64,000 nt of DNA from an uncultured virus (IMG/VR IMGVR_UViG_3300029931_000005) (Duplodnaviria; Heunggongvirae; Uroviricota; Caudoviricetes). The stretch lies in the IMG/VR virus record IMGVR_UViG_3300029931_000005, one strand, 5' to 3'. Both the position numbers and the translations under genes were made by a program. This document shows, one piece after another, positions 4,335 through 38,957 of this stretch (position 1 is the stretch's first letter; every line of letters starts with the position of its first letter). Below the pieces are notes generated by a model. It saw nothing but the letters and a program-made list of their open reading frames with translations. It ran no database searches and had not been told where the DNA came from.

Positions 4335-4682
4335 GCGATTCCTCCATTCGATTGGTGATAAAAGTTGGGTTTAACGGCCGTGATAAAAGGCCGCATGGTG
4401 AAGATGCGGCCATCGAACTGCATAGGTAATGCAACCACGGAAAGCGGACGACCATTTAGATTGTGTTTGTAGGGGAAAGAGATGCAGCTGTCATTCCTCC
4501 CACGATTGCAAGCGCCTGCCAGCGCTGGATGCTATGTCAACTCCTGCGGAATATTATAGGCGCAAGCCCCTTACGTGTCCAGTTACGGCCGTTGCATAAT
4601 GTTAGGCGTATGGTTGCCTCGCGCTGGCGTGCGTGGGCGAGGATGGCGTCATTTTGCTCGGCGAAGGTGGTGCGGTGATGCA

Positions 4683-5123
4683 TCAGCACTCCTCCTCCCC
4701 GGCAACATCTTGCCAATCTTCCACACACTCGTCGCAGCCACCGTCGATGTCATCCTCGAAAAATAAATCTTGCACTAAATTGCCGCAGTAGTTGCATTTC
4801 TGAGGCGATAGCCTCCAGAGATTCAATAGACGGCCGCTTTTAGTTGTTTCCGATCCTTCCAGAGCGAAGCCCATGCGGGCATACCAGCCGTTGCTGGGAA
4901 GATCTGCGGGGCACTTGGCAAAAACAGACGACGCCTCGGGATGACGGCTTTTCATCGCCTGCAACATTAGCCGCCCGATGCCCTTGCAGCGTTCCCCTGG
5001 TAACACAATAATTTCACGGATGGTGAGCTGGCCATCCCTACGCAAGTGATAATGCAGCAGGCCGCCTGGCCACAGGATCAGCTCCCGTCTATCTGCGGAT
5101 TCCATAAGGGTTTCAAAAATCAT
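4683..5123 (-). CDS. GNAT-family acetyltransferase
   Basis: IREIIV..ERCKGIGRLML acetyl-CoA motif, AKCPADLPSNGWYARMGF. Confidence 0.75.
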   Translation of the reverse strand: MIFETLMESADRRELILWPGGLLHYHLRRDGQLTIREIIVLPGERCKGIGRLMLQAMKSRHPEASSVFAKCPADLPSNGWYARMGFALEGSETTKSGRLLNLWRLSPQKCNYCGNLVQDLFFEDDIDGGCDECVEDWQDVAGEEEC

Positions 5124-5326
5124 GGCTGAGACTCCTCGGCGACGGCAGTTGCATCTTCGACACGATCCAGGTCGTAAAGAATGCTCCAAAGTGCCTCGAT
5201 AACCTCGCTCTTCACCATTGCCTCAATTTTATGATTGTGTAGGTTCAGCCAGTCGCGCTCGTCGCGTAACCTCGATATTTTTTCGCGCCACCGAGCTTTT
5301 ACCTGATCAAGCGTCATCGTTTTCAT
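5120..5326 (-). CDS. hypothetical protein
   Basis: ATGA overlaps on both sides. Confidence 0.55.
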   Translation of the reverse strand: MKTMTLDQVKARWREKISRLRDERDWLNLHNHKIEAMVKSEVIEALWSILYDLDRVEDATAVAEESQP

Positions 5327-6192
5327 GATTCCTCCTGGACAACGGCCGCTGCCCGTTGATACCGCCCCCAGGCCAGCGCTGACGGCTCCTCGGGCACGGT
5401 CCACAACTGCTGCATTCCCCGACATTCCACAGGCTTGATTGCCTTCGCGTCGGGCACATGCCAGGCAAAGCGGCCAGGCGAATAGTCGCCGAAGTACGCC
5501 TCTGGAGCAGATGGTGGCATGGTGATATTGCCGTAAACGGCCGTTTCCCCATACTCTACCGGGGTGCGATAGCAGCCGGTCATGCTGCCAATGGCCAGAA
5601 TTGACCCATAGTGGAAGTGTCCGCTTTCGGTATAACCATGCGCAGCCAACGTGTCTATGATCACACTGTTAAGCTCGCGCCAGTTCACCTTGCGCTTGGC
5701 GGAGTGGATGGCCAGTGGGCCGCGGTGTTCTGTTCCCCATGAGCGGGTCTCAAATAGCTTTAAGCCCAGCGCCATGAGCGTGGCCCACGGCTCCCAAAGC
5801 GTGATGGCCTTCAACACTTTCGGCATAGCCAGCCCGTCCACACGGCCGTTGCCCCCACTCTGCTGGCGCAGCCAGGCCGCAGCCTTAACCACAACGTCAC
5901 CATGACACACTTGCGGGGCACACCAACAGATAATCGCCGTATTTTCACCGATTTTTTGCAGCTCCTCCAAAACGGCCGTTTCACCCTTCTTGATCCGCGC
6001 CCACAGGTACTGCTTGTACAGCTCAACGGCCGTTTTCCGGTCTGTCCGGTCGTCAATACGGTATGGGTTGGCCAGCGGACTGCCCGGCAGGCCGCAGCGG
6101 GGGTTGGCTCGCCCGATGTACAGCCAGTCGTCGCCGTAGGCCGATTTTATGGCATAGATGGAACCATAGAGTTTGAAGTTAACGACGGGCAT
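5323..6192 (-). CDS. DUF4326 + ASCH domain fusion protein
   Basis: N-term YIGR..SPLANPY..CWCAPQVCHGDV; C-term AITLWEPWATL..KLFETRSW..RGPLAIHS. Confidence 0.8.
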   Translation of the reverse strand: MPVVNFKLYGSIYAIKSAYGDDWLYIGRANPRCGLPGSPLANPYRIDDRTDRKTAVELYKQYLWARIKKGETAVLEELQKIGENTAIICWCAPQVCHGDVVVKAAAWLRQQSGGNGRVDGLAMPKVLKAITLWEPWATLMALGLKLFETRSWGTEHRGPLAIHSAKRKVNWRELNSVIIDTLAAHGYTESGHFHYGSILAIGSMTGCYRTPVEYGETAVYGNITMPPSAPEAYFGDYSPGRFAWHVPDAKAIKPVECRGMQQLWTVPEEPSALAWGRYQRAAAVVQEES

Positions 6193-6430
6193 CTTCCCTC
6201 TCCTTGGCTAAACGCTCGATATCATCCACAAGGGAAGCGGGCAGACTGTTCATATAGCTCTGCCAAACGTTGAACAATACCTCTGCTGCAGCAGCGACGT
6301 GGGCACGCATTGATTCAAAAACTTCGCCAATTTCCACAAAAGCCTCACGCACGAGCTGAACCTCTTCATCGGTGGGCGGGATGCCTGCTTTTACCTTTTC
6401 GACAATAGCGTCCAGATTCGGCTTATCCAT
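6179..6430 (-). CDS. hypothetical protein
   Basis: overlapping operon ORF with GGAGG RBS. Confidence 0.55.
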   Translation of the reverse strand: MDKPNLDAIVEKVKAGIPPTDEEVQLVREAFVEIGEVFESMRAHVAAAAEVLFNVWQSYMNSLPASLVDDIERLAKEREDARR

Positions 6431-6665
6431 GGCCAGCCTCCACGCCAATGAGCATGTTGCCGGGAGTCACTTCCCGAGCGCCGATCACCTTGACGCCCAT
6501 CAGCTCGACCTCTCCCCCTACCTCGCCTTCATTGACCTTGCAATGGGTAGGCTTTTTACTAAAACGCTCCACATACCGCTCGATTGCCCGGCGCAGCCGG
6601 ATTTCCAGCTTTTCGCCGCTGTTATCGAATAGTTGAATGCCATCTATTTGAATACTCACTGTCAT
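6423..6665 (-). CDS. hypothetical protein
   Basis: starts at GGAGAAATGACAG box. Confidence 0.55.
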   Translation of the reverse strand: MTVSIQIDGIQLFDNSGEKLEIRLRRAIERYVERFSKKPTHCKVNEGEVGGEVELMGVKVIGAREVTPGNMLIGVEAGHG

Positions 6666-6733
6666 TTCTCCATTGACTTGACGGCCGTGCCTGCTGCCAC
6701 GCACGGCCGTCTGCTTAAGTTTTGCCCTAGAAA

Positions 6734-7168
6734 CTAAAAGGGGATGTCGTCCTCTTCCGTGGCGGAGCCGCCAGAGGCATAGCCATCCCCGCCCTCGTAG
6801 CCGCCACCGCCACTGTCGCCGCGGCTGCTCAGGAAGCGCACGGTGCTGGCATTCACCTCAAACGATGTGCCTACGGTGCCATCCTGGCGCGTCCAGAGGC
6901 GAGGCGCGCCGGTCTGCGGGTCGGCTTTTAGCTCGCCCTCGACCAACACTTTGGAACCTTTGGACAGATATTGGTTGCAGTCTTCAGCCTGCTTGCCAAA
7001 GACAGAGACGCGGAACCAAGTGGTTGTCTCTCTCGCTTCCCCGGTGGCTTTATCTGTCCACTTTTTGCCGGTGGCCACACTAAAACTGGTCACCGCCTGA
7101 CCATCAGGGAAGTAACGCATTTCGGGGGCACCCCCCAGGTTGCCTGCAATGATCACGGTCTGAAACAT
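6734..7168 (-). CDS. ssb: single-stranded DNA-binding protein
   Basis: GNLG..PEMRY, TTWFRVSVFGKQAE, LSKGSKVLVEG, Gly-rich linker, acidic tail EDDIPF. Confidence 0.97.
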   Translation of the reverse strand: MFQTVIIAGNLGGAPEMRYFPDGQAVTSFSVATGKKWTDKATGEARETTTWFRVSVFGKQAEDCNQYLSKGSKVLVEGELKADPQTGAPRLWTRQDGTVGTSFEVNASTVRFLSSRGDSGGGGYEGGDGYASGGSATEEDDIPF

Positions 7169-7370
7169 GGATTAACCTCTCTTTGCTCGATATACAAGCG
7201 TGTTTTGGCCAATGATGTGGCCGATATAAATGTGATACACCTTTGCTCGCCCTGTCCGCTTGCGGCTACCTGGGCGAAAATGGCGAACAATTCGCTTTTC
7301 AATCCAAACTGTGGCCAGCCGCACCGCAATTATTCTCCGTTGCCAATATGGTCTGGATTTCTCGCGGGAT

Positions 7371-7652
7371 TTAACCAGCAGTCGCCGTCTCTTGCTCATT
7401 GACTTCCTCATCTTTGTTGTAGGGCTGACCATCACGTCGGATGACCTCCAGTTCATAGAGAGACATCCGCTTGCGGTAAGCGCGACCAGGGATGCGAATC
7501 ATGGCCTTGCTGCCGCGAAATTCGGTTATGGTGCCCCTGTGCTTTTTAATCTCGATTGTGCCGCCGGAGCGCTTGATGGTGATCCACTCCACCTCGTCAC
7601 CAATCTGAAACCTATCCCGAATGGTTTTGCCTTTTACCTTTTCTGCGTCCAT
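7371..7652 (-). CDS. small beta-rich hypothetical protein
   Basis: ORF with GGAGG RBS. Confidence 0.55.
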   Translation of the reverse strand: MDAEKVKGKTIRDRFQIGDEVEWITIKRSGGTIEIKKHRGTITEFRGSKAMIRIPGRAYRKRMSLYELEVIRRDGQPYNKDEEVNEQETATAG

Positions 7653-7656
7653 ATGG

Positions 7657-8196
7657 TTATCCTCCTAAAAACAGGCTCATCTGAGCCGGGTTTTTGGCAA
7701 CGGGAACGGCCGTATATTGGGCCAGCCATGCCGCCGCATCATCCACAGAAGCGGGTATCACTTCGGCCACGCGTCCGGCCTGCACCGTGCTGTACCAGCG
7801 AATGACGGCCACTGTGTAAGCCAGGGCGAGGGCAATGTCGTCGTCATCTCCCCACACGTCCCCCAGCTCGGTGTTACGGCCGTAATCGCTATCGAGCAGG
7901 GTCACCCGGTCCACCAGAGTTTCGGCCAGTGGCAGAAGACTGTGGCCATGTTTGGCATGAACAGCCTCTGCCCAGCTGTGGATCAACTCGTCGCGCCAGT
8001 AGATGTACATGCGGTCAGCAATACCCAACAGGTGTGCCGGATCGATGTCAGTCTGGCCCCGCAGCTCCTTATAAGCTGCCGCGAAAAAGTCATGGACAGT
8101 CAAGCCGCAGGGCAGTCGGAAGATGGTATTCCCGCGAGACTGCGCTTCTTTCTCCAGCCAGCGGATTTCCTCGGTGCTGATTTTTAATCTAGTCAC
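7657..8196 (-). CDS. hypothetical protein
   Basis: ORF ending in QMSLF, a beta-clamp-binding-like motif. Confidence 0.6.
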   Translation of the reverse strand: MTRLKISTEEIRWLEKEAQSRGNTIFRLPCGLTVHDFFAAAYKELRGQTDIDPAHLLGIADRMYIYWRDELIHSWAEAVHAKHGHSLLPLAETLVDRVTLLDSDYGRNTELGDVWGDDDDIALALAYTVAVIRWYSTVQAGRVAEVIPASVDDAAAWLAQYTAVPVAKNPAQMSLFLGG

Positions 8197-8554
8197 GCTG
8201 CACCAATCGGGCTTGCACTTCCATCACCGTCCAGATGAGCCAGGTGAGCAGCCAGCGCAAGTGATCGCCCAGGTTGCCCGGCTGCCCCTTGAATTTCGGG
8301 GACGTATCCGACTCGCCGCCCTTCTCCTTCATGGTCACAATCAAATTGGGTGCGGGTGGCTGCTCGGGAAGCCACTCCACCTCGGCCGTGTATACTGTGT
8401 CGGCGCGCTGCATCTCGGCCACGATTGACCGCGGCATACGGCCGTTCACCACTGGGAAGGCCACAAAGTAATGCCGCTCCCGCGTGATAGGGTTCACCCA
8501 GGCTTGCAAGTCGTGGTTGTCTGATCTTTCTTCGCGGATTGCTTGGCTATCCAT
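8189..8554 (-). CDS. hypothetical protein
   Basis: overlapping operon ORF. Confidence 0.55.
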   Translation of the reverse strand: MDSQAIREERSDNHDLQAWVNPITRERHYFVAFPVVNGRMPRSIVAEMQRADTVYTAEVEWLPEQPPAPNLIVTMKEKGGESDTSPKFKGQPGNLGDHLRWLLTWLIWTVMEVQARLVQRD

Positions 8555-8798
8555 TGGCTATTACCTCATTTAGCTGATTGAAATACGGGGTATTTAGGTC
8601 AATTTCCAGGGCTTTAAGCGCCCAGGTCCATGACTCTTTTTCGTGCTCTGGGCAGTGGGCCATTGCATCAGCCCACGTGGGATAACGGCCGTGCTGAGCA
8701 AAAAACCACTTGGCGTAATTAGGACTGTCCATGTTGTCCAGGTGAGCCAGGCGCTCGCGGTCGTATTTGGTTTCGGAAACGGTCTTTTTCTTTGCCAT
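8547..8798 (-). CDS. hypothetical protein, paralog of 20500-20787
   Basis: FFAQHGRYPTWADAMAHC matches FYYQHGREPTWADAMDHC. Confidence 0.65.
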   Translation of the reverse strand: MAKKKTVSETKYDRERLAHLDNMDSPNYAKWFFAQHGRYPTWADAMAHCPEHEKESWTWALKALEIDLNTPYFNQLNEVIANG

Positions 8799-9590
8799 TG
8801 CTATGCAGCCCTTCACTTCGCCTTGGCCGCGCCAATCCAGGCCCTGCGTTGCCCTTGCGGTACTTCTCGGTGCATTGCCTCAGCTGGGCAACTCAATGCC
8901 TTGCTTTGCCTCGGCGGCGCTCCTCAGTGCCAAGCTTTACCATTGCTGACCTGCGCCCTGCCGCTGCCTTGCATCGCGATACTCCTCATTGCCTTTGCTG
9001 CGCCGCTCTGAGCGGTTCGCTGCGTTTCGGTGCCTTTGCTTTGCCAAGCTACCCAACGCGGTGCCCTCGCAACTCTCTGCATCGCCTTGCCTTTGCTGTG
9101 GGCTTCACCGCATCGCCATTGCCATCTGTGCCTTGCTCAGCTTCGCCTTTGCTTTCTGTGCGGCACTTAACCTTGCTTTACCTTTGCTTCGCGCCACCAA
9201 GCACCTCAACTCAGCACCCGGCTTGGCCGTTGCAAAGAGATGCCATGACCCACTTCGCTTTGCCTTCGCTGTGCCGCTCACCGCCAACACGAGGCTTAGC
9301 TTGGCCATTGCTGTGCTACGCCGCTCTGAGCGGTTCGCTGCGTTTCGGTGCCGTCGCAACTCTCTGCCTCGCTTTCCTTGGCGGCGCTATGCTGAGCCGT
9401 GGCGGTGCAGCACCTAACTCTGCCTTTGCTTTGCTTTTGCCGCGCGGTACGGCGCTTCGCTCAACTTTGCCGCTGCTGTTCGACGCTATGCCATGCCTTT
9501 GCCGTACGACACATGGCCGCGCCCCGGCTGAGCCGAGCTATGCAACGCCTTTGCTGCGCAAAGCCTTGCCAGGCATCACCATGCCCCTGC
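8793..9590 (-). ncRNA. putative guide/scaffold RNA array with 5-nt periodicity (NG[C/T]NN pentamers, ~25 units)
   Basis: minus strand reads GGCAT GGTGA TGCCT GGCAA GGCTT TGCGC AGCAA A GGCGT TGCAT AGCTC GGCTC AGCCG G ...; G at every fifth base, one extra base before a GGC/GGT every 4-9 pentamers; starts right after the RAMP stop codon. Confidence 0.75.
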
Positions 9591-9593
9591 GGA

Positions 9594-10193
9594 TCAGTCG
9601 CCTAATTTGTTAATCGTGTAGCTGAAACGGCCGTACCCAGCGTTGCGCCACTGGCCAAGACCGCGATTCTCACCATAGTCCAGCCACTCGCGCAGCAGCT
9701 GCTCGGAGATGCTGCCACCCAGCGCGTTGATGGTGAACTCCAACACCGTCCCCGCCGGCACTGTGTCCGACCGCGCCAGGGTCACCCGCTCGCCCTGGGC
9801 CGTTTGGGCACGCAACGGCCGTTCCAGGACACCCATGCCATCGCCATTCACCCGAATGGGAATCTGCCGGGGAGTGATGAAAACCAGCCCGTCGATCTCC
9901 TTCTTGTACGCCCGAACCTTGGATGATTCGCTTTTGTCCACCCGACGCAGCATGCCGCAGGCGTCCTTGAAGAAGCCCTTGACAACGTAGTCATAGATGA
10001 TGGGTTTCCCATCGACCTGGTGGAATCCGGTCCAACCCTTCTCCTCGGCGTGCTCGACAGATTCCAGCTCCTCGGCGGCCTGCTCGTCGGTGAGGGCCGC
10101 TTTGGTCATGATGTGCGAGGCGTAAACCTCGGGGTCTTTGGGCACGGTGCCCAACATCGGCTCTAAAAGTGTGAGTGTTACCTGATATTTCAT
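9594..10193 (-). CDS. stand-alone Cas7-like RAMP-superfamily protein
   Basis: first strand YQVTLTLLEPMLG, GKPIIYDYVVKGFFKDA (RAMP P.I.gss.KG..R equivalent), DTVPAGTVLEFTI, C-terminal Gly-rich loop GLGQWRNAGYGRF. Confidence 0.8.
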   Translation of the reverse strand: MKYQVTLTLLEPMLGTVPKDPEVYASHIMTKAALTDEQAAEELESVEHAEEKGWTGFHQVDGKPIIYDYVVKGFFKDACGMLRRVDKSESSKVRAYKKEIDGLVFITPRQIPIRVNGDGMGVLERPLRAQTAQGERVTLARSDTVPAGTVLEFTINALGGSISEQLLREWLDYGENRGLGQWRNAGYGRFSYTINKLGD

Positions 10194-11281
10194 CGCGCTT
10201 TTTCCTTTGTTGTGAATAGGTTTAGCTGGACGTAAGGCACGTCCTGCAAGGTATTGATATAAGTCCGCACACGCTCATCCACGGCCGTTACCACTGGCTC
10301 CGGATCGGGGGCAGCCTCATTAATCACTTCGTCGGGTTCAATCGGGTCCATAACTGGCGGGGCGGCTGGGCTTTCTTCGGTCGCTGGATCGGGCTTCCAC
10401 TCACCAGCATGAAACTGCTGCATGATGCGCTCCTGCTCCAGGTAGAACATTGGTGCCCACACGCCGTTCAGGCCATAAAGCATCATGTTGATTTGTGCCA
10501 TCCTGACGCAGGTGACATCAATGTCCTGGCCAAAGAACTGGACCAGCCCCATATTGATCATCCAGGGGGGAGTGTTTCTCGCGTAGGCCAGGAACATCAC
10601 GCCGCTGCCACATGCGGGATCGTGGACCTTTACTGGCTCATAATGGGAGAGTATGTGAGGCAGGATACGGGTGGTGAAATAAGCGCGGTAAATGGTCTCG
10701 TCACTCATCACCGAGTAAGCCAGGCCAGCCATCAGGCGCGCCTGGGCCGGGATTGACTTACTGATAGCCTCGACCAGATTCTTCTGGACTTCGGCGGCGG
10801 GGCCACCCAGTACACTGGCCATGAGATCGGCCACGTGGAATGGGGTGAAAAACTGGCCGTTCCATTTATTGGCCACGCCCCATTCCTGGTAACAGTCGCC
10901 CACGGTATCCCAATAGCCATCGGCTGTGGTTTGCCATAGTGCGGCCGTTGCCTGGGCAAAATAATCAAAGGGGTTGGTGCGGCGGGTGGAACCGTCGCCG
11001 TAGCGGTGGCGCAGCCGCGCGAAGAGTTTTACGGACTCTTCCGGCTCCTCGTAGGGTGCCTGATCCAGGGTGCAGCGAAAGCGATCACGCACGCTGGTCA
11101 GGGAATCCAAAACTAGGTCCAGCCAGTCGTCAAAAATTTGCCAGGGGGTTGAGCCGTAGGCGGTTAGCCGCTCCAGGTTCTTTAGGATTTCCTTGCGGGC
11201 CGCATCGCGGCTCGGGGAAAATGGGGGTAAATTTTGCTGCGCATCGCTAACGCGGCGAGCATAATCAATAGTTGCTGTCAT
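10190..11281 (-). CDS. N-6 DNA methylase (HsdM-like) domain protein lacking a visible NPPF/Y motif
   Basis: GQFFTP, DPACGSG, GQDID..CVRMAQIN; no catalytic motif IV seen. Confidence 0.75.
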   Translation of the reverse strand: MTATIDYARRVSDAQQNLPPFSPSRDAARKEILKNLERLTAYGSTPWQIFDDWLDLVLDSLTSVRDRFRCTLDQAPYEEPEESVKLFARLRHRYGDGSTRRTNPFDYFAQATAALWQTTADGYWDTVGDCYQEWGVANKWNGQFFTPFHVADLMASVLGGPAAEVQKNLVEAISKSIPAQARLMAGLAYSVMSDETIYRAYFTTRILPHILSHYEPVKVHDPACGSGVMFLAYARNTPPWMINMGLVQFFGQDIDVTCVRMAQINMMLYGLNGVWAPMFYLEQERIMQQFHAGEWKPDPATEESPAAPPVMDPIEPDEVINEAAPDPEPVVTAVDERVRTYINTLQDVPYVQLNLFTTKEKAR

Positions 11282-11327
11282 TTCTCAGTTTCTCCCCCCA
11301 CCCCGGCGGCCTGCCAGCCATGTGCCG

Positions 11328-11357
11328 GGGTGGGTTAATGTGATTTATTTAGGTCAA
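11328..11357. repeat. 30-bp direct repeat, copy 1 (copy 2 at 13240-13269)
   Basis: GGGTGGGTTAATGTGATTTATTTAGGTCAA; 28/30 identical to copy 2. Confidence 0.9.
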
Positions 11358-11361
11358 TTTA

Positions 11362-13197: not shown

Positions 13198-13239
13198 TAG
13201 GTTCCTCGCCCTTCGCGCATCCTGACCCACCCCACACCA

Positions 13240-14888: not shown

Positions 14889-14914
14889 GCTACTACTCCT
14901 CTTTTGTCAGGTTT

Positions 14915-29784: not shown

Positions 29785-30135
29785 TCATGTGCCTACCCAT
29801 TCTGGCTGCTTATATCCGTTAAATCGGATTTGGCTAGGCTTATTGACGCAATAGTCCAGCCACGACGGGGGCAACTGCCCATTGAAGCACAACCAGCAGA
29901 TAGGTTGATCGGGCGATTCATACGGCCGCAAATAGTTGGTGTCGCCAACTACCACGACGTCAAAGGCTTCTCGGCCTGGGTAGGCGCTGCCCGGAACATG
30001 CCACCGAACGCCCGTTGCTATGTCGTAATCAATTTCGCGCCAACTGTCCGGTTCCAACAGCGGTGGCTCGAAAAGCCGATCCGACTGCTCACCGCAATAG
30101 GCACAAGTGCCAGGTTCTTTAAGTTTGTTTTCCAT
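29785..30135 (-). CDS. hypothetical protein
   Basis: CAYC ... CWLC; GAGG RBS. Confidence 0.5.
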   Translation of the reverse strand: MENKLKEPGTCAYCGEQSDRLFEPPLLEPDSWREIDYDIATGVRWHVPGSAYPGREAFDVVVVGDTNYLRPYESPDQPICWLCFNGQLPPSWLDYCVNKPSQIRFNGYKQPEWVGT

Positions 30136-30142
30136 GTTATCC

Positions 30143-30694: not shown

Positions 30695-30747
30695 CGTTCC
30701 ATACTCCCTTTTGCGGGGGCGATTGACCATATCACCCGTCACAAAGC

Positions 30748-30775
30748 ATTGTACCATAGATTTTACTTTATGCAA
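30748..30775 (-). promoter_or_regulatory. sigma70-type promoter TTGCAT-N16-TACAAT
   Basis: read directly. Confidence 0.7.
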
Positions 30776-30816
30776 TCGCCTGTTGAGAGAAATTTACCCT
30801 GAAATAAGCGATTTAC

Positions 30817-31779
30817 TTACACCGACAATGCAGTCAGCCGCCTGACCTCGCTGAACAAAACTTCGTCAGCCACGGCATCTAGATTATCAGCCAACTCGGA
30901 CGGCCGTGTCTCGGCGCTCCATCTATCCCAAACTTCTTGGACCATTGTCGCGGGCAGCAGGTTTCTCATGAGGATATAGTCGGTCATACGGCCGTCGTGT
31001 CCCCACAGCCCCTTGATAGTTTTCAGGTTGGGCGAAGCGTTTGCTTCCAGGATAACAATTACCCAAAGAGAAGCGGGATCAAGATCGTCAATTTCTTCCG
31101 GTTTCATGGATGGGCAAAACACGCAGCTGCTTTTGCCAGGAGATGGTAGCCCGGCCTGAATGATGGCGCGTTCGCAATCGCCCCGATTCATTCCCCACAG
31201 CTGCAATGGATGCAGATACATGTCATTTGCGCGTGCCCCACCGGGCTTGGTTTTGGTGGAGAAGCGGCTTACCCGTTTGATTTCCGTGCAGTCATACCCC
31301 ACCAGACGATAGCAGGGCTGGTCGCCATAAACGGCCGTTACGTGCTTATCTATCTGATCGCCTTTCCACTTCAAGCTGCAACTGTGATTACGACGAAAGG
31401 CAATGCTGGGCAAAGTCCGGTTGGAGATGCAGTTCCCGGCCAGGCTCTCGTAATGATGGTGCTTGGCTTTGCGCCCCAGCTCGTAACGAACAAAGGTGAT
31501 AGCTGGAAAGCCCACCCGCTTTAGCCATGTGTCCAGCAGGGGCAGGTACAAATAAAATCGGGGATGCTCGTTGCCATACTTCCCCTGCCCCACCAATGCT
31601 GTGATGATGGTGTCAGGCCGTATCCCGCGCCGGTGCATTTCCACCAGCATGGCCACGGAATCCACCCCTACGCCCAACGAGACCACAATGGGGGCATCAC
31701 CAAGCGGCCCGGCAATACGACCGTTTTCAAACCGCACCGGCGCGCCAATGTCAGCAGGGAATAGCCGTATCTGGTTCAC
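30817..31779 (-). CDS. PAPS-reductase-like PP-loop protein
   Basis: VSLGVGVDS, HSCSLKWK, GYD..E..R, HPL..WGM.R..C, KSSCVFCP. Confidence 0.8.
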   Translation of the reverse strand: MNQIRLFPADIGAPVRFENGRIAGPLGDAPIVVSLGVGVDSVAMLVEMHRRGIRPDTIITALVGQGKYGNEHPRFYLYLPLLDTWLKRVGFPAITFVRYELGRKAKHHHYESLAGNCISNRTLPSIAFRRNHSCSLKWKGDQIDKHVTAVYGDQPCYRLVGYDCTEIKRVSRFSTKTKPGGARANDMYLHPLQLWGMNRGDCERAIIQAGLPSPGKSSCVFCPSMKPEEIDDLDPASLWVIVILEANASPNLKTIKGLWGHDGRMTDYILMRNLLPATMVQEVWDRWSAETRPSELADNLDAVADEVLFSEVRRLTALSV

Positions 31780-32072
31780 GTTGCCACCCTCGTGGCCTTC
31801 CTTCGCCTGGGTGCAGGCAACGGCACACGGCGACGACACTCCAGCTCTTGATAGGCTCGGAGCTCGTCAATATCGCCGCGCCGAATGCCCTCAAACACCA
31901 TTGCAGTTCGGCCGTCACCGACAAGCTCATACCGCTCGCGAATGGCTATCACGTGGGCATGCACAGTCATTCGGCTAACCTTGAGCTTCTGCGCCACTTC
32001 TTCGCACTGTGCGCCACCGGCGATCATCTGCAGCACCGTGATTTGGCGGGGGGTCAAACTTGTCAGCATCAT
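31776..32072 (-). CDS. LuxR-type HTH regulator
   Basis: LTPRQITVLQMIAGG....VAQKLKVSRMTVHAHV. Confidence 0.85.
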   Translation of the reverse strand: MMLTSLTPRQITVLQMIAGGAQCEEVAQKLKVSRMTVHAHVIAIRERYELVGDGRTAMVFEGIRRGDIDELRAYQELECRRRVPLPAPRRRKATRVAT

Positions 32073-32740
32073 GCAAACTCCATCCGCAGCGTGCGCGGCC
32101 GTAAAATCTCAATATCCTGCCACGTCCAGTCCGGCTCCGGCAGCCGCCACACCCAACCGTACTTACCATTTGATCCCACGGCGGGGATAGCACGGCCGTT
32201 TTCATCGACGGCCGTATACATCGGCTCAGCGCCAGAGGCTTTGTAAATCGTGCCTCGATGGAAAGCTGGATCGTGGTAGGAGATGGCCAGGCGAATGTGG
32301 TAAGGCTGCTGCGGGTAAACTGGTGGCCACATAGCCACCCGATCCCGCTGAACGCGTCCCAGCACCTCGCCGATCAGCCAGGAGGCTACCGTGGGGCGGA
32401 ATACGCCGCCGCGGTCGGCGAAGCCGGGGACGATGCCGGGTTTGCAATATGCCCCGCCCTGCTGCAGCAGCGGGTCTATCCAGATGCGGTTAAGGTCCAC
32501 CACCTGCCACTGCGTAGGCTTGCCCTTAACCCCATACCAGCGCTTGTTTTTGGTGGCGTGGGGAATGCCGACCATGCACAGGCCGAGGCGGCGGGGAGTG
32601 CCGTTAGGGGCATACCACAAGATGTAGACCATCGAGCGGGTTTGTGGGTGAGGGATTGTTTTCAGATAGTGGAAGTGCTCGACGGTTTTTTGTGTCCAAG
32701 TCATATCGGCGTGGTCGCCTAAAGTGACAAATAGCTTCAT
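32069..32740 (-). CDS. Mom-like / GNAT-fold DNA modification protein
   Basis: HFHYL, DLNRIW, ISYHDPAFHRGTIYKASG. Confidence 0.65.
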   Translation of the reverse strand: MKLFVTLGDHADMTWTQKTVEHFHYLKTIPHPQTRSMVYILWYAPNGTPRRLGLCMVGIPHATKNKRWYGVKGKPTQWQVVDLNRIWIDPLLQQGGAYCKPGIVPGFADRGGVFRPTVASWLIGEVLGRVQRDRVAMWPPVYPQQPYHIRLAISYHDPAFHRGTIYKASGAEPMYTAVDENGRAIPAVGSNGKYGWVWRLPEPDWTWQDIEILRPRTLRMEFA

Positions 32741-32743
32741 GAC

Positions 32744-33946
32744 TTACCTACCTCGGTTATTTTGATCGCCGCTAGAGCCTGGATGCGAAAATAAGGGTAG
32801 ACTAGATAGATCTTCGCGTTCCATCTTTTCTGTCGTGCTGGGAAAAGCGTAATTCAGGATGGTCTCCACGTTGTTTGTATGGAGTTGCCCAGCCATCTTG
32901 AGCCACCAATCCAGCCTGATCTGGGCAATCTCTGTGTAGGCTTTGCTTAGGTCAATCCCAACCACTTCATCCCAACCAGCCAGGAGCGCGCCTATCATTT
33001 CTGACCCGCTACCGCAGAACGGAACAAGAAGTCGGCGCGGACGTCCGGTGACAGGCGGCAAAATCATAGTCGCCAAATACTTTGTCAGCTCAATGGGCTT
33101 AACTGTGGGGTGGTCGTTTTTAGTGCCGTTTGGGAGTCCAGCGTCCCGCTCTTTCTTGTGTGGTTTTGCCGCGTAAAAGAATCGGGCAGCCGATCCGGTG
33201 TCGCCCCGCGGCTCAGCTGAAGCGATGCGGTTGATCATGCCGCTGTACTTGACGCTACCAGAGAACCCGTTTTTAGTTGGCTCAGTTCCCTTTACAACGC
33301 CCTGCTGCCCTGGAACATCAGGAAAGCAGCCTTCTGTTTCCTGGCTGCCATCGTGAATGAGGTTGGCTGGCCAACGTCCACTTGTGCTGCCACTAGAAAA
33401 CGGAACATTAGAACCTCCGTACCCAATAGACGCCTTGTTATTCGCCCTGATTGTGTTCGCTGTTCCGATGCGACTCCTTCCAACATTCAAACCAGCCACA
33501 CCGTGCATCGCTGCGTTGTTGGCAAATGTCCCATCAAGAGGATTCATTGCCAGCACAACTGGTTCCCACGCGGGCTTCAAGGCTGTGCCGTACCCCTCCC
33601 AGACATCGTTGTCAATCTTGGAAGGAAAGTCATGATTTTTCGGGAACCCGTTGCCGTGTACCCAGGCGTAACCGACGCAATCTCTGATTTGAAAGCCGCC
33701 ATCCTCAATTGCCACGGCGATGCGGTGATATGTTCTATTGCCGCCAAAGCTCAAAAGTATTGAGCCAGGGCGAAGTAGGTTGCGAATGCCAAGCCATGTC
33801 AGATGACTGAACGAGACTCCAGCCTTGTCCCAATCCTTACCCATGAAACCCAGCTCGTAAGGCGCGTCAGTAAAAACTGCATCAAATGGCTCGCCTTGAT
33901 AGTGGCTGGTAAACTCATTGATGTCGCAGACCTGAAGGTCAAACAT
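32744..33946 (-). CDS. N4/N6 DNA methyltransferase (beta class)
   Basis: TDAPYELGFMGKDWD, HPTVKP, LVPFCGSGS. Confidence 0.9.
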   Translation of the reverse strand: MFDLQVCDINEFTSHYQGEPFDAVFTDAPYELGFMGKDWDKAGVSFSHLTWLGIRNLLRPGSILLSFGGNRTYHRIAVAIEDGGFQIRDCVGYAWVHGNGFPKNHDFPSKIDNDVWEGYGTALKPAWEPVVLAMNPLDGTFANNAAMHGVAGLNVGRSRIGTANTIRANNKASIGYGGSNVPFSSGSTSGRWPANLIHDGSQETEGCFPDVPGQQGVVKGTEPTKNGFSGSVKYSGMINRIASAEPRGDTGSAARFFYAAKPHKKERDAGLPNGTKNDHPTVKPIELTKYLATMILPPVTGRPRRLLVPFCGSGSEMIGALLAGWDEVVGIDLSKAYTEIAQIRLDWWLKMAGQLHTNNVETILNYAFPSTTEKMEREDLSSLPLFSHPGSSGDQNNRGR

Positions 33947-34520
33947 TCGGCCCTCCGATTATTTCGGCCAGCGAACGGCCGTTACGTTGATCTAGGATTC
34001 TTTGCTTGATGAATTTGCAGACCGACATAAACCCATAGCGGCGAGCCTTTGCGTCGTTTTCTGCCACGCAATCCATCAAGCTTCTCTTTATTCGCTTAGC
34101 ATCCTTTGAAGGAGATTGACACAGGCCAGATAGGGTTTCTATAAGGCGATCAACTTTTGACGCCTGAACAGTACGAGCATCATTGATGCACAACCAAAGG
34201 CCGCAATCGTCACTGTCTAGGGCTTGGCCACTTATGTAGCGCAAGTAATCAGCAACCTCTTGCTTGCTTATATTCGGAGGCAAAGTGGGGCGCATCACAA
34301 ATGGGTCTGACAGTATATCTAAAATCCGAAGGGCTTTTTCTCCAGCAACACCGCCTTTCTTAACTGCCCGAACTACATCTGCCGTTTCACCACAGGCGGC
34401 AGCCACTTCACCAAGACTCCACCCCCGATAGCGACGTAACTTATCGACCTTTTTTCCAACAGAAAGGCTTGGGTCATCACGCATGGTGGCCATATCTTCA
34501 AAAATCTTATTCACTGTCAC
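33939..34520 (-). CDS. XRE-like HTH protein
   Basis: LRRYRGWSLGEVAAACG; lower GC than flanks. Confidence 0.6.
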   Translation of the reverse strand: MTVNKIFEDMATMRDDPSLSVGKKVDKLRRYRGWSLGEVAAACGETADVVRAVKKGGVAGEKALRILDILSDPFVMRPTLPPNISKQEVADYLRYISGQALDSDDCGLWLCINDARTVQASKVDRLIETLSGLCQSPSKDAKRIKRSLMDCVAENDAKARRYGFMSVCKFIKQRILDQRNGRSLAEIIGGPNV

Positions 34521-35658
34521 CTCCGATTATTTCGGCCAATGAACGGCCGTGTTTGAACGTAGCCCCGCCAATCTCCTCCAGGCGGATGTAATGAGCAGCC
34601 AGCTCCGGTTGATGCCGTGCCCCGTTGCGGATGTCGTTGTCACTGGCCAGGATACACAAGGCACAGGACAGGCGTTCGTTGCCGAACACATAGGCGGGAT
34701 GGGCGGGGAATTGCTTCACCGCCAGCCACTTGAGCGCACCAATAAGATTGGAATCCGCCCCACCCTCTTCCAGCTCCAGCGCATATCGGTAGACCTCCCG
34801 GCGCTGGGCCACATCAAAGGCGGATGTGCCGCAGGCCGTCCAGACATCCTCCAGCAGCCAGTCATGGATCGGATACCAGGTGATGGCCAGGCGCGGCCGT
34901 TTCTCCTTGCCAATGTAGTAGGTGAAATCGGGGAAGCGTTCATAAATAGCCGTGTAGTTTTCTGCATCCAGCAGATCCGTAACGGTCAGCCACGTGGCCA
35001 GGGCTTCCTCGACCGGCAAGTCGCGCAGCGGCTTGGCCGTGATTTGTGCCCGGATACTCACCTGGGGGTCTTTGCGCCGTTTAGGAGATTCCTGAGCGCG
35101 ATTCCCCTCGGCGGAAATAATCAGGTCATAAGCCCGGTAAGCCTTATCGGCCTGGTTGGACTTGTGATGAGAGGTGCAGTACCGATTGGTGGAGGATGGC
35201 CAGAAAGGTGAAACTGCCGTTTTTACATCCCGGTAAACCTTGTCGGCCTGGCTGCGCTTCTGGTCGGCCGTGCAGTAGCGCGAGGCGGAGCTGGGCCAGA
35301 ACGGCGCACCAGTCCCAGCCAGCTTCTCCATACGATCCTCGATCTCCTGCACCAGATCACCCTGCGGCCGCCGCACCACCGTCAGCCAAAGTTCGTTTTC
35401 ATCGGCAATGCGATCTACATGGTTAGGGGTTTCGAGCCATTCGGCCCGGCCCAGGTCCATGTGCAAAGCAAAAATCGGGTTATTTAGCCCATTTTCCCGC
35501 CAGTAAGCGGCCAGCAAGTTGGCAATCGCCTGGCTGTCCTTGCCGCCGCTGATAGACACGGCCAGGGTAGCGCCGACGGCAATGGCCTGCTGAATGACGG
35601 GTGGCACAACCAGGCTGGTTTTGGGCGGTTCTTGGAAGAGGGATAATTGATTAACCAT
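34507..35658 (-). CDS. PAPS reductase family protein
   Basis: SISGGKDS, RYCT (duplicated), EGNRAQES..R, RLSCALC. Confidence 0.88.
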   Translation of the reverse strand: MVNQLSLFQEPPKTSLVVPPVIQQAIAVGATLAVSISGGKDSQAIANLLAAYWRENGLNNPIFALHMDLGRAEWLETPNHVDRIADENELWLTVVRRPQGDLVQEIEDRMEKLAGTGAPFWPSSASRYCTADQKRSQADKVYRDVKTAVSPFWPSSTNRYCTSHHKSNQADKAYRAYDLIISAEGNRAQESPKRRKDPQVSIRAQITAKPLRDLPVEEALATWLTVTDLLDAENYTAIYERFPDFTYYIGKEKRPRLAITWYPIHDWLLEDVWTACGTSAFDVAQRREVYRYALELEEGGADSNLIGALKWLAVKQFPAHPAYVFGNERLSCALCILASDNDIRNGARHQPELAAHYIRLEEIGGATFKHGRSLAEIIGGDSE

Positions 35659-35932
35659 CTTGTCCCTCCTGCTGCTTTTGAAACATCGCCTGCGCCGGGC
35701 GCAGCTGCGCCCGGCGCTTCTGGTGGGTGAAGGCGTCTACCACCTTGAGGCGCTTGGTCTTGCAATACTTTTCCAGGTCGGCGCGTTTTACGGCCGTTAC
35801 GCCAAAGATTTGCTCCAGCTCGATTTCCGGCGCGTGCTCCCGTAGGTGCCGCCACACATTGCCCTTGCCAACCGATACACCAACTAGCTCGGCCGCTTCG
35901 GTTTCGGTAACATAGTCGCTTAAATTAGTCAT
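35651..35932 (-). CDS. HTH DNA-binding protein
   Basis: YVTETEAAELVG. Confidence 0.55.
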   Translation of the reverse strand: MTNLSDYVTETEAAELVGVSVGKGNVWRHLREHAPEIELEQIFGVTAVKRADLEKYCKTKRLKVVDAFTHQKRRAQLRPAQAMFQKQQEGQDG

Positions 35933-36293
35933 GGGGCGCTCTCCCCTGCCCCGACTGGCAGCAATCAGCATGGTCGTATCCGGGGCAAGCGCCACCCAGG
36001 CCAGGGGCGCTGCCGCACCAATGCTGACCAAAGCAGCGCACGCCACCTGGCGCAAAGGAGAGGATGGCGATACCCTGGGCCAGCTCGTTGAAGATGTGTC
36101 CTGGCTCGTCTTTTTTGCCGTTGCCAAACTGGAGGATGTCGCCTTTCTCGGCGATCAGTTGGCCAATCTCTTTGGCTCTGGCGAGGTCTGAATCGTTAAG
36201 CCCCCCACGGCCGTTAATGGCAATGATTCTAAGGGGAACAGCCGCAAGCAAAGCGGCCGTCAACGGGGAATTTTCAATTGTATTGGCTGTCAT
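35925..36293 (-). CDS. hypothetical protein
   Basis: starts at GAGAAATGACAGC box. Confidence 0.6.
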   Translation of the reverse strand: MTANTIENSPLTAALLAAVPLRIIAINGRGGLNDSDLARAKEIGQLIAEKGDILQFGNGKKDEPGHIFNELAQGIAILSFAPGGVRCFGQHWCGSAPGLGGACPGYDHADCCQSGQGRAPHD

Positions 36294-36374
36294 TTCTCGG
36301 TTATCCAATGCGGCGTAAATACCGCGATTAAGGGCGTGGGCAGCCTGCCAGCTGGGCCACGCCCTGTCTGAAAA

Positions 36375-36974
36375 TTAGATTACATTATTTTTAATGCGCT
36401 CTGCAATGGCTTTGTCAACGGTCTCGACCGGAATGTGCAGGTGATCGGCCCAAATGACCGGCGTTTCCGGCTTGATGGCCACCCCGCTGGAAATTTGTGA
36501 GTTAACAAACGCCACGGCCGTGTGCCAGTTGGTTGCCTCCACGATGTAATCGTAGCAATCCCGGCACAAAACCTCGCGCCGCCGGTGAGGTTCAATATAT
36601 CGCTTCCACTCTTCATCGGGAACCCGGAAAAAGTGTGGCCAATGCTCACCACACAGAGCACAGAGGACGGGATATTGAATGTAGGGGAATCGCCCTTGCT
36701 CGTTGAGCATTTTTTCAAACTGCTGCCACTGCGCCTCACTCACACCATTGCTGAAAATTTCTGGTGGCAGGAAAGCGGTTTCGTTCGTGTACTTCTCATG
36801 GTCGTAGAGGTCCAGATTCTTGTATAGGCAATCGCAAGAAATGAGCTGCCAGCCGCAGAACGGACACTTTTCCATGTCGCAGCCCAGCTGGTGCAGCTGC
36901 CCCTCTTTTGCGCCACAGTCGCGGCACGTGATTTCGCTTCTTTCATCCATCATGTTATCTGACATACCTACCAT
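36375..36974 (-). CDS. Cys-rich hypothetical protein
   Basis: CRDCG...H..GCDMEKCPFCG.QLISCDC; CALCG; CRDC. Confidence 0.7.
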   Translation of the reverse strand: MVGMSDNMMDERSEITCRDCGAKEGQLHQLGCDMEKCPFCGWQLISCDCLYKNLDLYDHEKYTNETAFLPPEIFSNGVSEAQWQQFEKMLNEQGRFPYIQYPVLCALCGEHWPHFFRVPDEEWKRYIEPHRRREVLCRDCYDYIVEATNWHTAVAFVNSQISSGVAIKPETPVIWADHLHIPVETVDKAIAERIKNNVI

Positions 36975-37038
36975 ACTCCTTTTCGGTGAAAATAAATTGA
37001 ATTAAGCGGGGCAGTTGACCGACTGCCCCGCGTGAAAC

Positions 37039-37995
37039 CTATGCTGGCTGTGCCTGGTACATCATCCAGGTCACTGTTTCTTCGTTGCCCATGATGTCGG
37101 CCGCATCCACCAGATCGGGCAACTTGGGTTCTGTTAACGATACGGCCGTTGGCAGGCCCCCCCGCGCAAAGAAGCGGGTGGCCACCTCGATACGGTTCTG
37201 CAATCTGCGCTCCAGGTCGCGGTATGTTCTGTGGATGAACATGGCATCGAGGAACGATATCGCCGTGTCCCTGGGCATGGTGCGAATTTTGTCCAGGACG
37301 GGGCTGGTGGCCAGCAGGTTGACCGATTCTGCTTCCCGGTCGCTCATCATGTCGCCAACCGTTGGTGGCTGCTGGCCACCGGGATCGATGGCCACCGGCT
37401 CCCAATGCGGCCCAGAGAAGCGGGTGCGCATCCACACGTCAAAAATGTCGCCACCAGGATCGGCATAGGTGCGCACCTGGCCGCGCCGGGAATGGATGAG
37501 GAATCCGGCACAGTTGGGACAGTTAACGGGGGACCAGTGTTCAACGGAGTGGGCCTGGGCGCACTCCGTGCAGCTGACCACCCACCACTCGGCGGCTGGC
37601 TTGCGGCCGCGCTTGCCCAACACACGGCCGATCCGGTCCATCACTTGAGAATCCTCTTTTGTCATGATGAGATTTTCGGTGAGGCTGATACGGCCGATGC
37701 TGACCGTGGGGTGTCGCCCCTCCAACTCTTCTTCGGGCAGCTCGTCGAAGCACTCCTGCGCCAACCATGCCATTTGCCGCGCCAGAGATTCAGACGTGGT
37801 AATAACTGCGCCTTCCTGGAAGATAACGCTTGTGCCCTCCTCTCCGGCACGACGCATCAGTGGCCCCAGCTCCTTGTCACCCCGGACTCGCAAAGCGAGT
37901 TCGTCGCGGCGACGGTAATATTTCGAGCCAAGCTGACAGCCGTCCGCTTCAATTAAACAAATCCATAATCGCTGCGATGTATCAAGCATGACCAT
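37039..37995 (-). CDS. hypothetical protein with zinc ribbon
   Basis: CTEC...CPNC; GAGTATGGTCATG start box. Confidence 0.75.
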   Translation of the reverse strand: MVMLDTSQRLWICLIEADGCQLGSKYYRRRDELALRVRGDKELGPLMRRAGEEGTSVIFQEGAVITTSESLARQMAWLAQECFDELPEEELEGRHPTVSIGRISLTENLIMTKEDSQVMDRIGRVLGKRGRKPAAEWWVVSCTECAQAHSVEHWSPVNCPNCAGFLIHSRRGQVRTYADPGGDIFDVWMRTRFSGPHWEPVAIDPGGQQPPTVGDMMSDREAESVNLLATSPVLDKIRTMPRDTAISFLDAMFIHRTYRDLERRLQNRIEVATRFFARGGLPTAVSLTEPKLPDLVDAADIMGNEETVTWMMYQAQPA

Positions 37996-38001
37996 ACTCT
38001 C

Positions 38002-38235
38002 CTATGCGTGGTAGACGGCCGTGACCAGCGGCGCGTCCTTCAAAATGATCTGAGTTGCCCCGGCGCAAACCGCCGTAAGCGCTTCATCAAGTTCCACGCG
38101 GCCGTCTACAAAGCGAACCTGTGCGCGGCAAAGCTCGCAGGTGGCCCCGGCGTCTGTGAAACTATTCAGGCGATGTTTGAGCGATTCCGCATCTCGCCGG
38201 ATTTTTATTTTTTCGTTAAGGGTGATAGCTGTCAT
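38002..38235 (-). CDS. hypothetical protein
   Basis: starts at GAAATGACAGC box. Confidence 0.5.
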   Translation of the reverse strand: MTAITLNEKIKIRRDAESLKHRLNSFTDAGATCELCRAQVRFVDGRVELDEALTAVCAGATQIILKDAPLVTAVYHA

Positions 38236-38276
38236 TTCCCTACCCTGCTACAGCAACGGCCGTCTGCCAACGGCCG

Positions 38277-38957
38277 TTAATTCGAAACATGTGTCCATGT
38301 TTTTCCGTTAACAATTTTCCCGATTGCTCGGCGGCTAACACCAAACATCCTTGCCAGATCGCGTTGATAATGATGTCCTGCTTTGTGCAGGCGCCGAATT
38401 TCCCGCACGCTTTCTTCGGTTAACTTCGAGGTTGGACAGTCCTCGCCCCTGCGTGGGCCAGGTGGGGTAAATCCATCGGGTCGGGGTATGTGCGCCCAGT
38501 GGTTTCCATTTAGAATATAATGCACGGTCGCGTAATGTACGCCAAACATGTCACCCAGGTATTCCATGGTACACCGTTCTTGATGCCACAGATCGATAAT
38601 TTGACGAACATCTTCCTCGGTTAATATCGAAAGGCCATGCCTCTCGCCCGCAGCCGCGCGCCCCTTTGCTGCCATGTCTGCCATATTATCTGCATGAGTG
38701 CCCAGCCAGAGATGGTGCGGGTTAACGCAGGCTCTGTTGTCACACGCGTGGCAGACAAACAAGCCTGCGGGGATTCTTTCACTGTGATGTACTTCGTAGG
38801 CGACACGATGGGCGAAACCGTTTGCGCCAGGATGAGAAAAATAACCGTAACCAGCGGCGCCTGTCTTGCCGTGCCACATCCAACATTCGTGCTTGTCACG
38901 CCGATCTACGTTTTGCCAAAAAGCGGAAATTACCTCGTCCGAAAATAGCTTTTTCAC
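38277..38957 (-). CDS. HNH homing endonuclease with two C-terminal HTH modules
   Basis: [32 protein letters not shown]; repeated LTEE.VR.I. Confidence 0.92.

Follow-up and report, generated by a model that had tools for sequence, protein, structure and literature searches.

We analysed a window of 64,000 nucleotides, the whole stretch of DNA considered here, from the uncultured virus IMGVR_UViG_3300029931_000005 (IMG/VR), a siphovirus-like sludge phage of 91-100 kb. Between the genes of this phage a small two-part element recurs, consisting of a hairpin with the constant loop TGGCAG and, downstream of it, a conserved box at the start codon of the next open reading frame (ORF). The window has a G+C content of 55.6%, and its minus strand carries all plausible genes. 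PHROG and Pfam scans of the window proteins identify it as a phage early and middle module, with SSB, a DnaD-like loader, a RecU-like resolvase, a number of DNA methyltransferases, proteins resembling PAPS reductase and Mom, a radical SAM enzyme, a cold-shock-domain protein, several HNH endonucleases and a TnpB. No tRNA genes were found in the window. The sole true relative found in relative searches, here called G002, is a complete phage record of 100,373 bp with terminal repeats, and it serves as the comparison genome throughout.

A recurrent hairpin joined to a start-codon box

An earlier note on this DNA had listed about 11 hairpins on the minus strand with differing stems around the loop TGGCAG, and all 11 sites are borne out. 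An unbiased scan of that strand for perfect stems of at least 5 bp enclosing loops of 3-10 nucleotides returned 525 hairpins, among which TGGCAG was the commonest loop, occurring nine times. The scan recovers the hairpins at 4511-4526, 6680-6711 (with a wider loop), 18818-18833, 19231-19248, 26362-26377, 27410-27431 and 38255-38278. The remaining ones are seen on closer inspection: 11308-11319, which is the inner stem of a longer hairpin at about 11301-11330; 15847-15860; 27445-27468; 29757-29768, in which 3 bp are followed by a bulge and then at least 4 bp, for a full extent of about 29747-29779; and 36331-36365. Three further hairpins were absent from the earlier list, two of them (15755-15770 and 29606-29623) within ORFs about 30 nucleotides 3' of a box, and the third (26590-26605) within a gene and with no box nearby.

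The recurrence of the TGGCAG hairpin is far beyond chance. A perfect stem of at least 5 bp abuts TGGCAG at 9 of its 71 occurrences on the coding strand and at none of 25 on the other; across all hexamers of the window such stems arise at a rate of 0.15%, and no hexamer besides TGGCAG has more than one. In G002 the corresponding figures are 5 of 72 on the coding strand and 0 of 23 on the other, with two for the next-best hexamer. The earlier note had named CTGCCA-centred hairpins in shuffled sequence as the critical comparison, and they are far rarer there: permuting the 3' flanks in 2000 trials gave a mean of 0.29 and a maximum of 3 stems of at least 5 bp (9 observed), and dinucleotide shuffles gave a mean of 0.11 stems of at least 4 bp (11 observed). 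The element is strand-specific, every copy being oriented as the genes are.

The second part of the element is the box, whose fuller consensus, (G)GAGAAATGACAGC, spans 13 letters and includes an ATG in frame with the next ORF. The core GCTGTCATTTC, at no more than one mismatch, has 10 matches, all in one (+) orientation, where 1.28 are expected and the largest count in any shuffle was 5. As had been claimed, a box follows each hairpin; the distance from loop to box ATG is 13-51 nucleotides, plus one case of 114. At two sites the box is degenerate (GATGATGACAGC at 26348 and GGAGTGACAGC at 18801), the latter, at the cold-shock gene, forming a spacer ahead of the real ATG. The claim that the box is not simply a favoured N-terminus is upheld by two observations. 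Three boxes open only tiny ORFs of 12, 29 and 8 codons (at 4494, 26348 and 27404), two of which run up to or into the next small ORF, and the threonine codon is ACA in every box, although ACA accounts for only 112 of 759 threonine codons (14.8%) in 52 long ORFs. The invariable use of ACA therefore points to a constraint on the nucleotides, not on the protein.

Hairpin and box are also coupled to one another. When TGGCAG copies of the window and G002 were pooled and assigned to boxes by a pattern blind to pairing, an abutting stem of at least 4 bp was found at 15 of 21 box-associated copies versus 7 of 120 others (Fisher 1e-10). Four of these seven adjoin degenerate boxes that the pattern misses, and in the six associated copies that have no abutting stem the hairpin is bulged, contains an internal loop or has its loop shifted. 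As a control, the pattern TGGCAG-N(8-38)-GAGAAATGACAGC was sought in bacterial genomes, where it produced 120 singleton, unrelated matches, one of them with a stem.

The order of parts is the same throughout: the upstream stop codon, 0-30 nucleotides, the hairpin, a spacer, the box, and then the next ORF or a coupled mini-ORF. In RNA form, a stem of 4-11 bp of free sequence encloses the invariant loop UGGCAG, and the box reads (G)GAGAAAUGACAGC; the spacer between them measures 8-114 nucleotides and sometimes contains another hairpin. Elements occur only at junctions with gaps of 41-348 nucleotides, where the genes are not translationally coupled, and the genes downstream of them are unrelated to one another. 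They are confined to the non-structural module, between 4.5 and 42.6 kb, where they fall within long early and middle operons of DNA metabolism and modification genes, with none upstream of 42.6 kb and none in the structural part of the same genome, the 23.3 kb that extend past window position 1.

Followed in the direction of the genes, with all sites on the minus strand, loops TGGCAG and boxes GAAATGACAGC unless stated otherwise, the series begins with a box that has no TGGCAG hairpin, at 42585-42595 (ATG 42592, ORF of 127 amino acids). The 9-bp hairpin at 38255-38278, whose 5' arm includes the stop codon of the upstream HNH gene, precedes the box at 38228-38238 (ATG 38235, 77 amino acids); the hairpin at 36331-36365, with an inner stem of 4 bp and an outer one of 8 bp, precedes that at 36286-36296 (ATG 36293, 122 amino acids); and both of these ORFs are conserved in G002. 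The bulged hairpin at 29747-29779 is the one that lies 114 nucleotides 5' of its box, with a large unrelated hairpin between; this box, at 29638-29648 (GGAGAAATGACAGCAATG), opens an ORF of 93 amino acids at ATG 29645, within which the additional hairpin at 29606-29623 has 6 bp. Two hairpins stand at the next junction, the first (27445-27468, 7-10 bp) terminator-like and with the loop TTGGCA, the second (27410-27431, 8 bp) directly abutting the box at 27397-27407, whose 8-codon ORF (ATG 27404) overlaps an ORF of 22 codons through ATGA. A 5-bp hairpin at 26362-26377 is paired with the degenerate box at 26341-26352 (ATG 26348, 29 codons), and a 6-bp hairpin at 19231-19248 with the box at 19203-19213 (ATG 19210, 117 amino acids).

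Ahead of the cold-shock gene stands a hairpin of 5 bp, or 7 counting G-U pairs (18818-18833), and the variant box at 18794-18805 separates GGAG from the cold-shock ATG at 18793. The hairpin at 15847-15860 (4 bp and a G-U pair) precedes the box at 15795-15805, at which the radical SAM ORF of 295 amino acids starts (ATG 15802); the additional hairpin inside this ORF, at 15755-15770, has 5 perfect base pairs, or 11 with G-U. The hairpin at 11301-11330, with 3-4 inner and 7 outer base pairs, leads to the box at 11274-11284 and an N6 methyltransferase ORF of 363 amino acids (ATG 11281). At 6680-6711 a stem of 11 bp carries the loop GTGGCAGCAG, and the box, at 6658-6668, is GAAATGACAGT (ATG 6665, 80 amino acids). 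The last hairpin (4511-4526, 5 bp), identical in G002, lies about 25 nucleotides 3' of the -10 hexamer of a promoter at 4581-4553, and its box GGAATGACAGC at 4487-4497 opens 12 codons (ATG 4494) that are followed at once, through TAA ATG, by an ORF of 54 amino acids. Counting G002, a second TGGCAG hairpin past the box is present at three junctions, two of them in the window.

The window contains several other repeats. The 8-bp palindrome ACGGCCGT occurs 137 times in the 64 kb, about once per 470 bp, versus 1.12 expected, and there are 224 copies in the 100 kb of G002 and 32 in the 23-kb extension, in coding and intergenic DNA alike. It lies within both arms of the hairpins at 38255-38278 and 6680-6711, and it often immediately precedes TGGCAG on the 5' side, hairpin or not (examples without one are 59370, 27911 and 52511); a full-text literature search for it returned nothing relevant. 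On the 3' side of the box at 27404, in the 347-nucleotide gap with the two hairpins, four copies of TCTAC(C) are spaced about 11 nucleotides apart (27290-27385) and may represent iterons or sites bound by protein. The junctions at 11330-11362 and 13240-13300 have in common a repeat of about 33 nucleotides, AA(A/G)TTGACCTAAATAAATC(A/G)CATT(A/T)ACCCACCC, with a TGGCAG hairpin coming after it only at the first of them. Two long gene-free gaps at 8816-9594 hold degenerate short repeats rich in GGCAAAG and GCAAGGC, with an internal 48-nucleotide repeat at about 8987-9034 and 9306-9352 detected by BLAST.

Stem covariation and conservation in the related phage

To evaluate the stems, 25 sites from the two genomes were aligned on the loop, comprising the 21 box-associated sites and four beside degenerate boxes. 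Over six stem pairs, 82.6% are standard base pairs versus 43.0% after shuffling (standard deviation 4.0; none of 500 shuffles reaches the observed value), and sliding the partner arm lowers pairing to 32-50%. The covariation score is 0.905 versus 0.233. Both sides vary in all six stem pairs, and none of the six loop columns varies across the 25 sites. Because the sites are paralogous copies, relatedness should inflate this covariation little.

G002 is syntenic with the window, matching it at 65-82% nucleotide identity in 16 patches, and carries elements at orthologous junctions. In all 10 orthologous pairs the two genomes have the same loop. Scored at six stem positions per hairpin, these pairs comprise 33 positions without change, 13 at which both partners differ yet still pair, 2 where a change of one partner preserves pairing, 10 that pair in just one of the genomes and 2 that pair in neither. 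Some arms are wholly different and still paired, as in the hairpin at 27423 (G002 61528) and the outer stem of that at 36350 (G002 74416). At 29617 (G002 66900) two compensatory changes lie within a gene, and the amino acids encoded by both arms differ as a result. The covariation of the stems around an unchanging loop, as the earlier note had proposed, is thus real by both comparisons, and together they argue for a folded single strand that is read by a specific partner. Two sites are unmatched: 6699 has no counterpart in G002, and G002 48706 none in the window.

The two genomes are extremely mosaic relative to each other, with 4 of 62 junctions syntenic. The box is kept even where the downstream gene has been replaced (15856 versus G002 52684). 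Where one flank alone is homologous in G002, it is usually the downstream flank, so that the element mostly tracks the downstream gene, as expected of a leader element.

One further record, G001, proved to be the same genome as the window (100% identity over window positions 1-16562, reaching 23.3 kb past position 1), and another, L150, is the window's own 91-kb metagenome contig. Protein-based searches for the locus returned only G002, that contig and two fragments of 2-3 kb that have no elements. No cultured relative was found when pieces of the window were compared by megablast with phages, plasmids and E. coli genomes, and a tblastn search of cultured phages with the vWA protein gave only matches of about 30%, in Bacillus and Moorella phages. 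Contigs 80-95% alike to window positions 18500-38400 are present in wastewater, activated-sludge and aquatic metagenome runs from four other studies, and on this ground a wider family of the phage exists.

The proteins of G002 include tape measure, head, portal, terminase and integrase. Farther upstream in the window itself, PHROG and Pfam identify ParA, an anti-repressor, an SLT/M23 lysin, an FtsK-like ATPase and a histidine kinase. Genes for a histidine kinase, an EAD7 domain protein and a cREC_REC (cyclic-phosphate processing receiver) protein are located at 54892-55362, 59508-60056 and 60061-61311, and the histidine kinase and M23 peptidase are common to the window and G002.

A proposed leader signal and its alternatives

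The element is a real, lineage-specific and previously undescribed cis-element, and it matches no described RNA family. Rfam gave no matches at gathering score over the whole window, and just two weak, unrelated ones at E values up to 5 over 4000-43000. A covariance model (R1) found nothing above 13 bits in unrelated loci. In viral contigs, the 14-mer GGAGAAATGACAGC yielded at least 120 singleton matches, which we discount as chance. A gapped pattern gave 12 loci there, of which G002 accounts for two, the genome of the window itself for one, and a provirus (G003), with 42% G+C and no similarity to the window, for another.

Several familiar signals were considered and rejected. The hairpins are not intrinsic terminators, in which a run of U comes after a G+C-rich hairpin, as all but the one at 27468-27445, the only one flagged in a terminator scan, have no T-run. 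Nor is the element a sigma-70 promoter cassette, since 10 of the 11 sites have no sigma-70-like promoter, and the box is wrongly spaced for a -35 element. The single strong promoter near an element is at 4581-4553 (TGGACA, 17 nucleotides, TATAAT); it is conserved in G002 and places the 4521 hairpin in a 5' leader. Promoter-like sites in general are at shuffle level (14 versus 11.2, and 12 versus 11.6). A sigma-54 promoter has TGGCAC at -24 and TTGC at -12 with fixed spacing; here the sequence after TGGCAG is the variable 3' arm of the stem, and TTGCA is present only at site 4521, where the spacing is one base short, and is absent from the G002 orthologue.

The phage does have other promoter-like sequences. 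One conserved motif, TTGCATTATTT with TGnTAAAAT or TATAAT after it, was matched 7 times versus 1.3 expected, among them minus-strand sites at 16492-16502, 22802-22812, 40515-40525, 43088-43098 and 45659-45669, which are probably early promoters. Behind it, at 16.5, 22.8, 40.5 and 43.1 kb, come a small leader hairpin (for example CTGGATTGGTCATCCAG) and a second kind of start box, GGAGTATGGT. Minus-strand sites of this second box are 22726-22735, 36970-36979, 40449-40458, 42989-42998, 45594-45603, 46808-46817 and 48123-48132. Its internal ATG is the first in-frame ORF start, often with a second ATG 2-3 codons on, and it tends to come after sigma-70-like promoters, not TGGCAG hairpins.

The element is very probably functional and most probably acts at the RNA level. 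We favour, at about an even chance of being right, the reading that it is a leader RNA signal of the downstream gene. The element would act within the mRNA, its loop serving as the docking site of a sequence-specific trans-acting factor encoded by the phage or its host, and its box as a specialised translation-initiation region; loop and box together would set the translation, and perhaps the stability, of the downstream gene, and some 11 early and middle genes would thereby form one post-transcriptional regulon. The direction of control, like the existence and identity of the factor, is something that we infer. No recurrent segment complementary to the loop was found nearby, making a pseudoknot unlikely, and the loop thus appears free for a partner. 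The junctions with a second TGGCAG hairpin past the box suggest that a multivalent binder could bracket the start site, which is the logic of known two-hairpin operators.

A number of points weigh against the leader reading. A second in-frame ATG lies 9 nucleotides after the box ATG at three window sites (ATGACAGCnATG), so that either codon may initiate, and GGAG or GAG stands just 2 nucleotides 5' of the box ATG, unusually close for initiation led by a Shine-Dalgarno sequence. The comparison rests on two independent genomes, and the four sites added to the alignment were chosen as hairpins beside degenerate boxes, which introduces a slight bias. Folds of the coding strand are more stable than those of its complement in 21 of 24 cases, mainly through the U-G pair that closes the constant loop, and G-U counts outside the loop are similar on both strands; this strand evidence is weak because it is confounded by the loop's own closing pair. 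With all genes on one strand, orientation relative to transcription is inseparable from orientation relative to replication. Finally, cold-shock proteins, the family of the candidate factor discussed next, usually bind RNA with low specificity.

That candidate factor would be the phage cold-shock-domain protein. Its gene is itself preceded by a copy of the element, as the earlier note observed, and this is so in G002 as well; the protein (18581-18793), in which RNP1 and RNP2 are both retained, is alone among the products common to the two genomes in being recognisable as RNA-binding. Even so, we regard it as an improbable partner. Other proteins present in both genomes are the 77-amino-acid CxxC protein (38002-38235) and the products of 26394-26822 and 22323-22730. 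The 'RAMP gene' that the earlier note placed in an operon with a copy of the element comes down to one weak PADLOC match, to type IV Cas7 (Csf2) at E = 0.0064, for the 199-amino-acid product of 9594-10193. This Cas7-like gene has no counterpart in G002, which has the elements, and its product is therefore an unlikely partner. Protein Atlas leads for other products, a GGDEF/cyclase-like palm domain (37039-37995) and SLOG (35925-36293), all score below 0.9, and Pfam at E values up to 5 gave nothing useful for eight small proteins.

A more specific proposal, which we consider rather unlikely, is that a phage RNA-binding protein reads UGRCAG twice, once as a hexaloop on any stem and once single-stranded over the start codon, so that about 11 genes would be switched on or off together. 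The reader may be the cold-shock-domain protein or an unrecognised small protein common to both genomes, and a single factor for loop and box, in the manner of the two-site operator suggested by the earlier note, would be plausible. The idea is suggestive in that the box at G002 52643, GAAATGGCAGC, itself reads TGGCAG. Yet the two parts cannot stand in for each other: every one of the 25 loops has G at the variable position, where all boxes except this one have A.

Among the alternatives, the one that survives best, though we think it unlikely, dispenses with a dedicated factor altogether and sees two ordinary, independent junction features, namely a generic stem-loop that protects or insulates the upstream cistron and an optimised ribosome-binding region. 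The restriction of elements to uncoupled junctions and the variable spacing of hairpin and box would fit this, as would the second start box GGAGTATGGT (14 matches at no more than one mismatch versus 2.7 expected, 13 of them on the coding strand), which makes stereotyped start regions a habit of this phage. However, a generic hairpin needs no invariant loop of 6 nucleotides, and here one loop recurs unchanged through all aligned sites and all orthologous pairs, against stems in which substitutions have reached saturation. Joint occurrence of hairpin and box far exceeds what independence predicts, and TGGCAG hairpins are also found 3' of the box, inside ORFs.

Alternatively, the element could work as a DNA hairpin or cruciform, either as a priming or replication signal or as a junction for recombination and module shuffling. 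Perfect Watson-Crick stems would permit a DNA hairpin on either strand, the genomes are extremely mosaic with elements persisting where a flanking gene has been replaced, and the promoter-stem-loop cassettes (PeSLs) of T4-type phages are composite motifs of this make-up that have been implicated in such exchange (PMC4122927). We find this quite unlikely. The edges of conserved blocks show no significant excess of elements (7 of 11 junctions with an element versus 22 of 51 others, P = 0.32), 10 of the 11 sites have no sigma-70-like promoter, the 81 window and 64 G002 proteins scanned included no phage RNA polymerase, and a constant sequence of 6-13 nucleotides is short for homologous exchange. 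The fixing of the box on the start codon would also be left unexplained.

The position of the hairpin between cistrons, directly after stop codons, and a constant loop that implies specific recognition could instead mark the site of a Cas6-like or RegB-like endoribonuclease, which would cut a polycistronic mRNA into units, so that the hairpin would form one end of a unit, 3' or 5', and the box would lie in a new 5' leader. T4 RegB cleaves at GGAG within the start regions of early genes, where an extended A-rich stretch lies on the 3' side (PMC3014915), and the weak Cas7-like match at 9594-10193 might supply an enzyme. This is decidedly unlikely in our view: the box fits the RegB consensus GGAGRAYARAA poorly on our reading, and the window and G002 share no nuclease candidate, the Cas7-like gene being absent from G002. 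The nut-like antitermination suggested in the earlier note, in which RNA polymerase would acquire a processive antiterminator at the hairpin and linear box of its emerging transcript, has the bipartite layout with a specific loop and the CspE antiterminator as best NCBIfam model of the cold-shock protein in its favour, but is very improbable given eleven sites per genome each fixed at a start codon, a hairpin that precedes the box, terminator-like sites that are not associated with elements (no U-tracts, 27468-27445 excepted) and no N-like or Q-like protein recognised in the PHROG and Pfam scans.

Should a partner of the leader signal be found, the element would provide a compact, portable hairpin-plus-box module for coordinated translational control, an instance of regulon-wide post-transcriptional timing in a non-T4 phage, and a candidate for a new Rfam RNA family; it would also show that regulatory RNA motifs of uncultured sludge phages can be detected from sequence alone. 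If the UGRCAG proposal were true, the element would represent a new class of bipartite RNA operator governing a post-transcriptional regulon in a DNA phage.

Comparison with known systems

Bipartite RNA sites are known from the lambda nut site (boxA and boxB), the thrS operator with its two anticodon-like hairpins, and Lin28 on pre-let-7. As proposed for the present element, a loop is read for its sequence and a second site lies at a flexible distance, with one protein or a dimer contacting both. Unlike it, these are single sites, not an 11-site regulon, and they differ in sequence, order and copy number; no protein of any of the three systems was found here. In a lambda-type nut site, boxA comes before the boxB hairpin, and an N-type protein brings about read-through of downstream terminators. 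The present element does not belong to this type, as the order is reversed, terminators are not associated with it and no N-like family was matched.

In T4, early mRNAs across the phage share a signal at or near AUG together with GGAG, and one small protein uses such a start-region signal to shut down or inactivate a group of mRNAs, as PMC3014915 describes for RegA and RegB; the present element would resemble this arrangement in outline. As characterised there, however, the sites of RegA are rich in A+U, lack structure and show poor conservation, those of RegB require GGAG with an A-rich tail, and neither is given a partner hairpin with a constant loop. No translational repressor annotation was seen in the PHROG scans of the window and G002 proteins. 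The PeSLs of T4-type phages (PMC4122927) are likewise small composite motifs that include a stem-loop and recur at gene boundaries where a large phage genome is plastic. They combine a terminator with an early promoter, whereas in the present element 10 of 11 sites are without a promoter, U-tracts are lacking and a box occupies the start codon.

The closest system in layout is SAS/ESAS of the Cluster K mycobacteriophages, of which the element is nevertheless not a member. Both involve a short asymmetric motif with 11-19 copies per genome in a single orientation, confined to the non-structural half and tied to the starts of unrelated gene families, with an inverted repeat just upstream of about half the copies and conservation in related phages. 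The details differ. SAS is the 13-bp sequence GGGATAGGAGCCC, located 3-7 bp 5' of the start, whereas the present box GAGAAATGACAGC contains the start codon. The arms of ESAS are imperfect repeats with a conserved 17-bp consensus, and the departures from it do not support RNA pairing, which led its authors to favour DNA-binding proteins; the present arms have no consensus and covary around a constant loop. The phage lineage and host are also unrelated, and the function of SAS/ESAS was still untested in 2025. Repeated start-associated motifs have been known in phages since 2011, and the present element, with stems that covary around an invariant loop, a box fixed on the start codon and only about 11 targets, offers a cleaner case.

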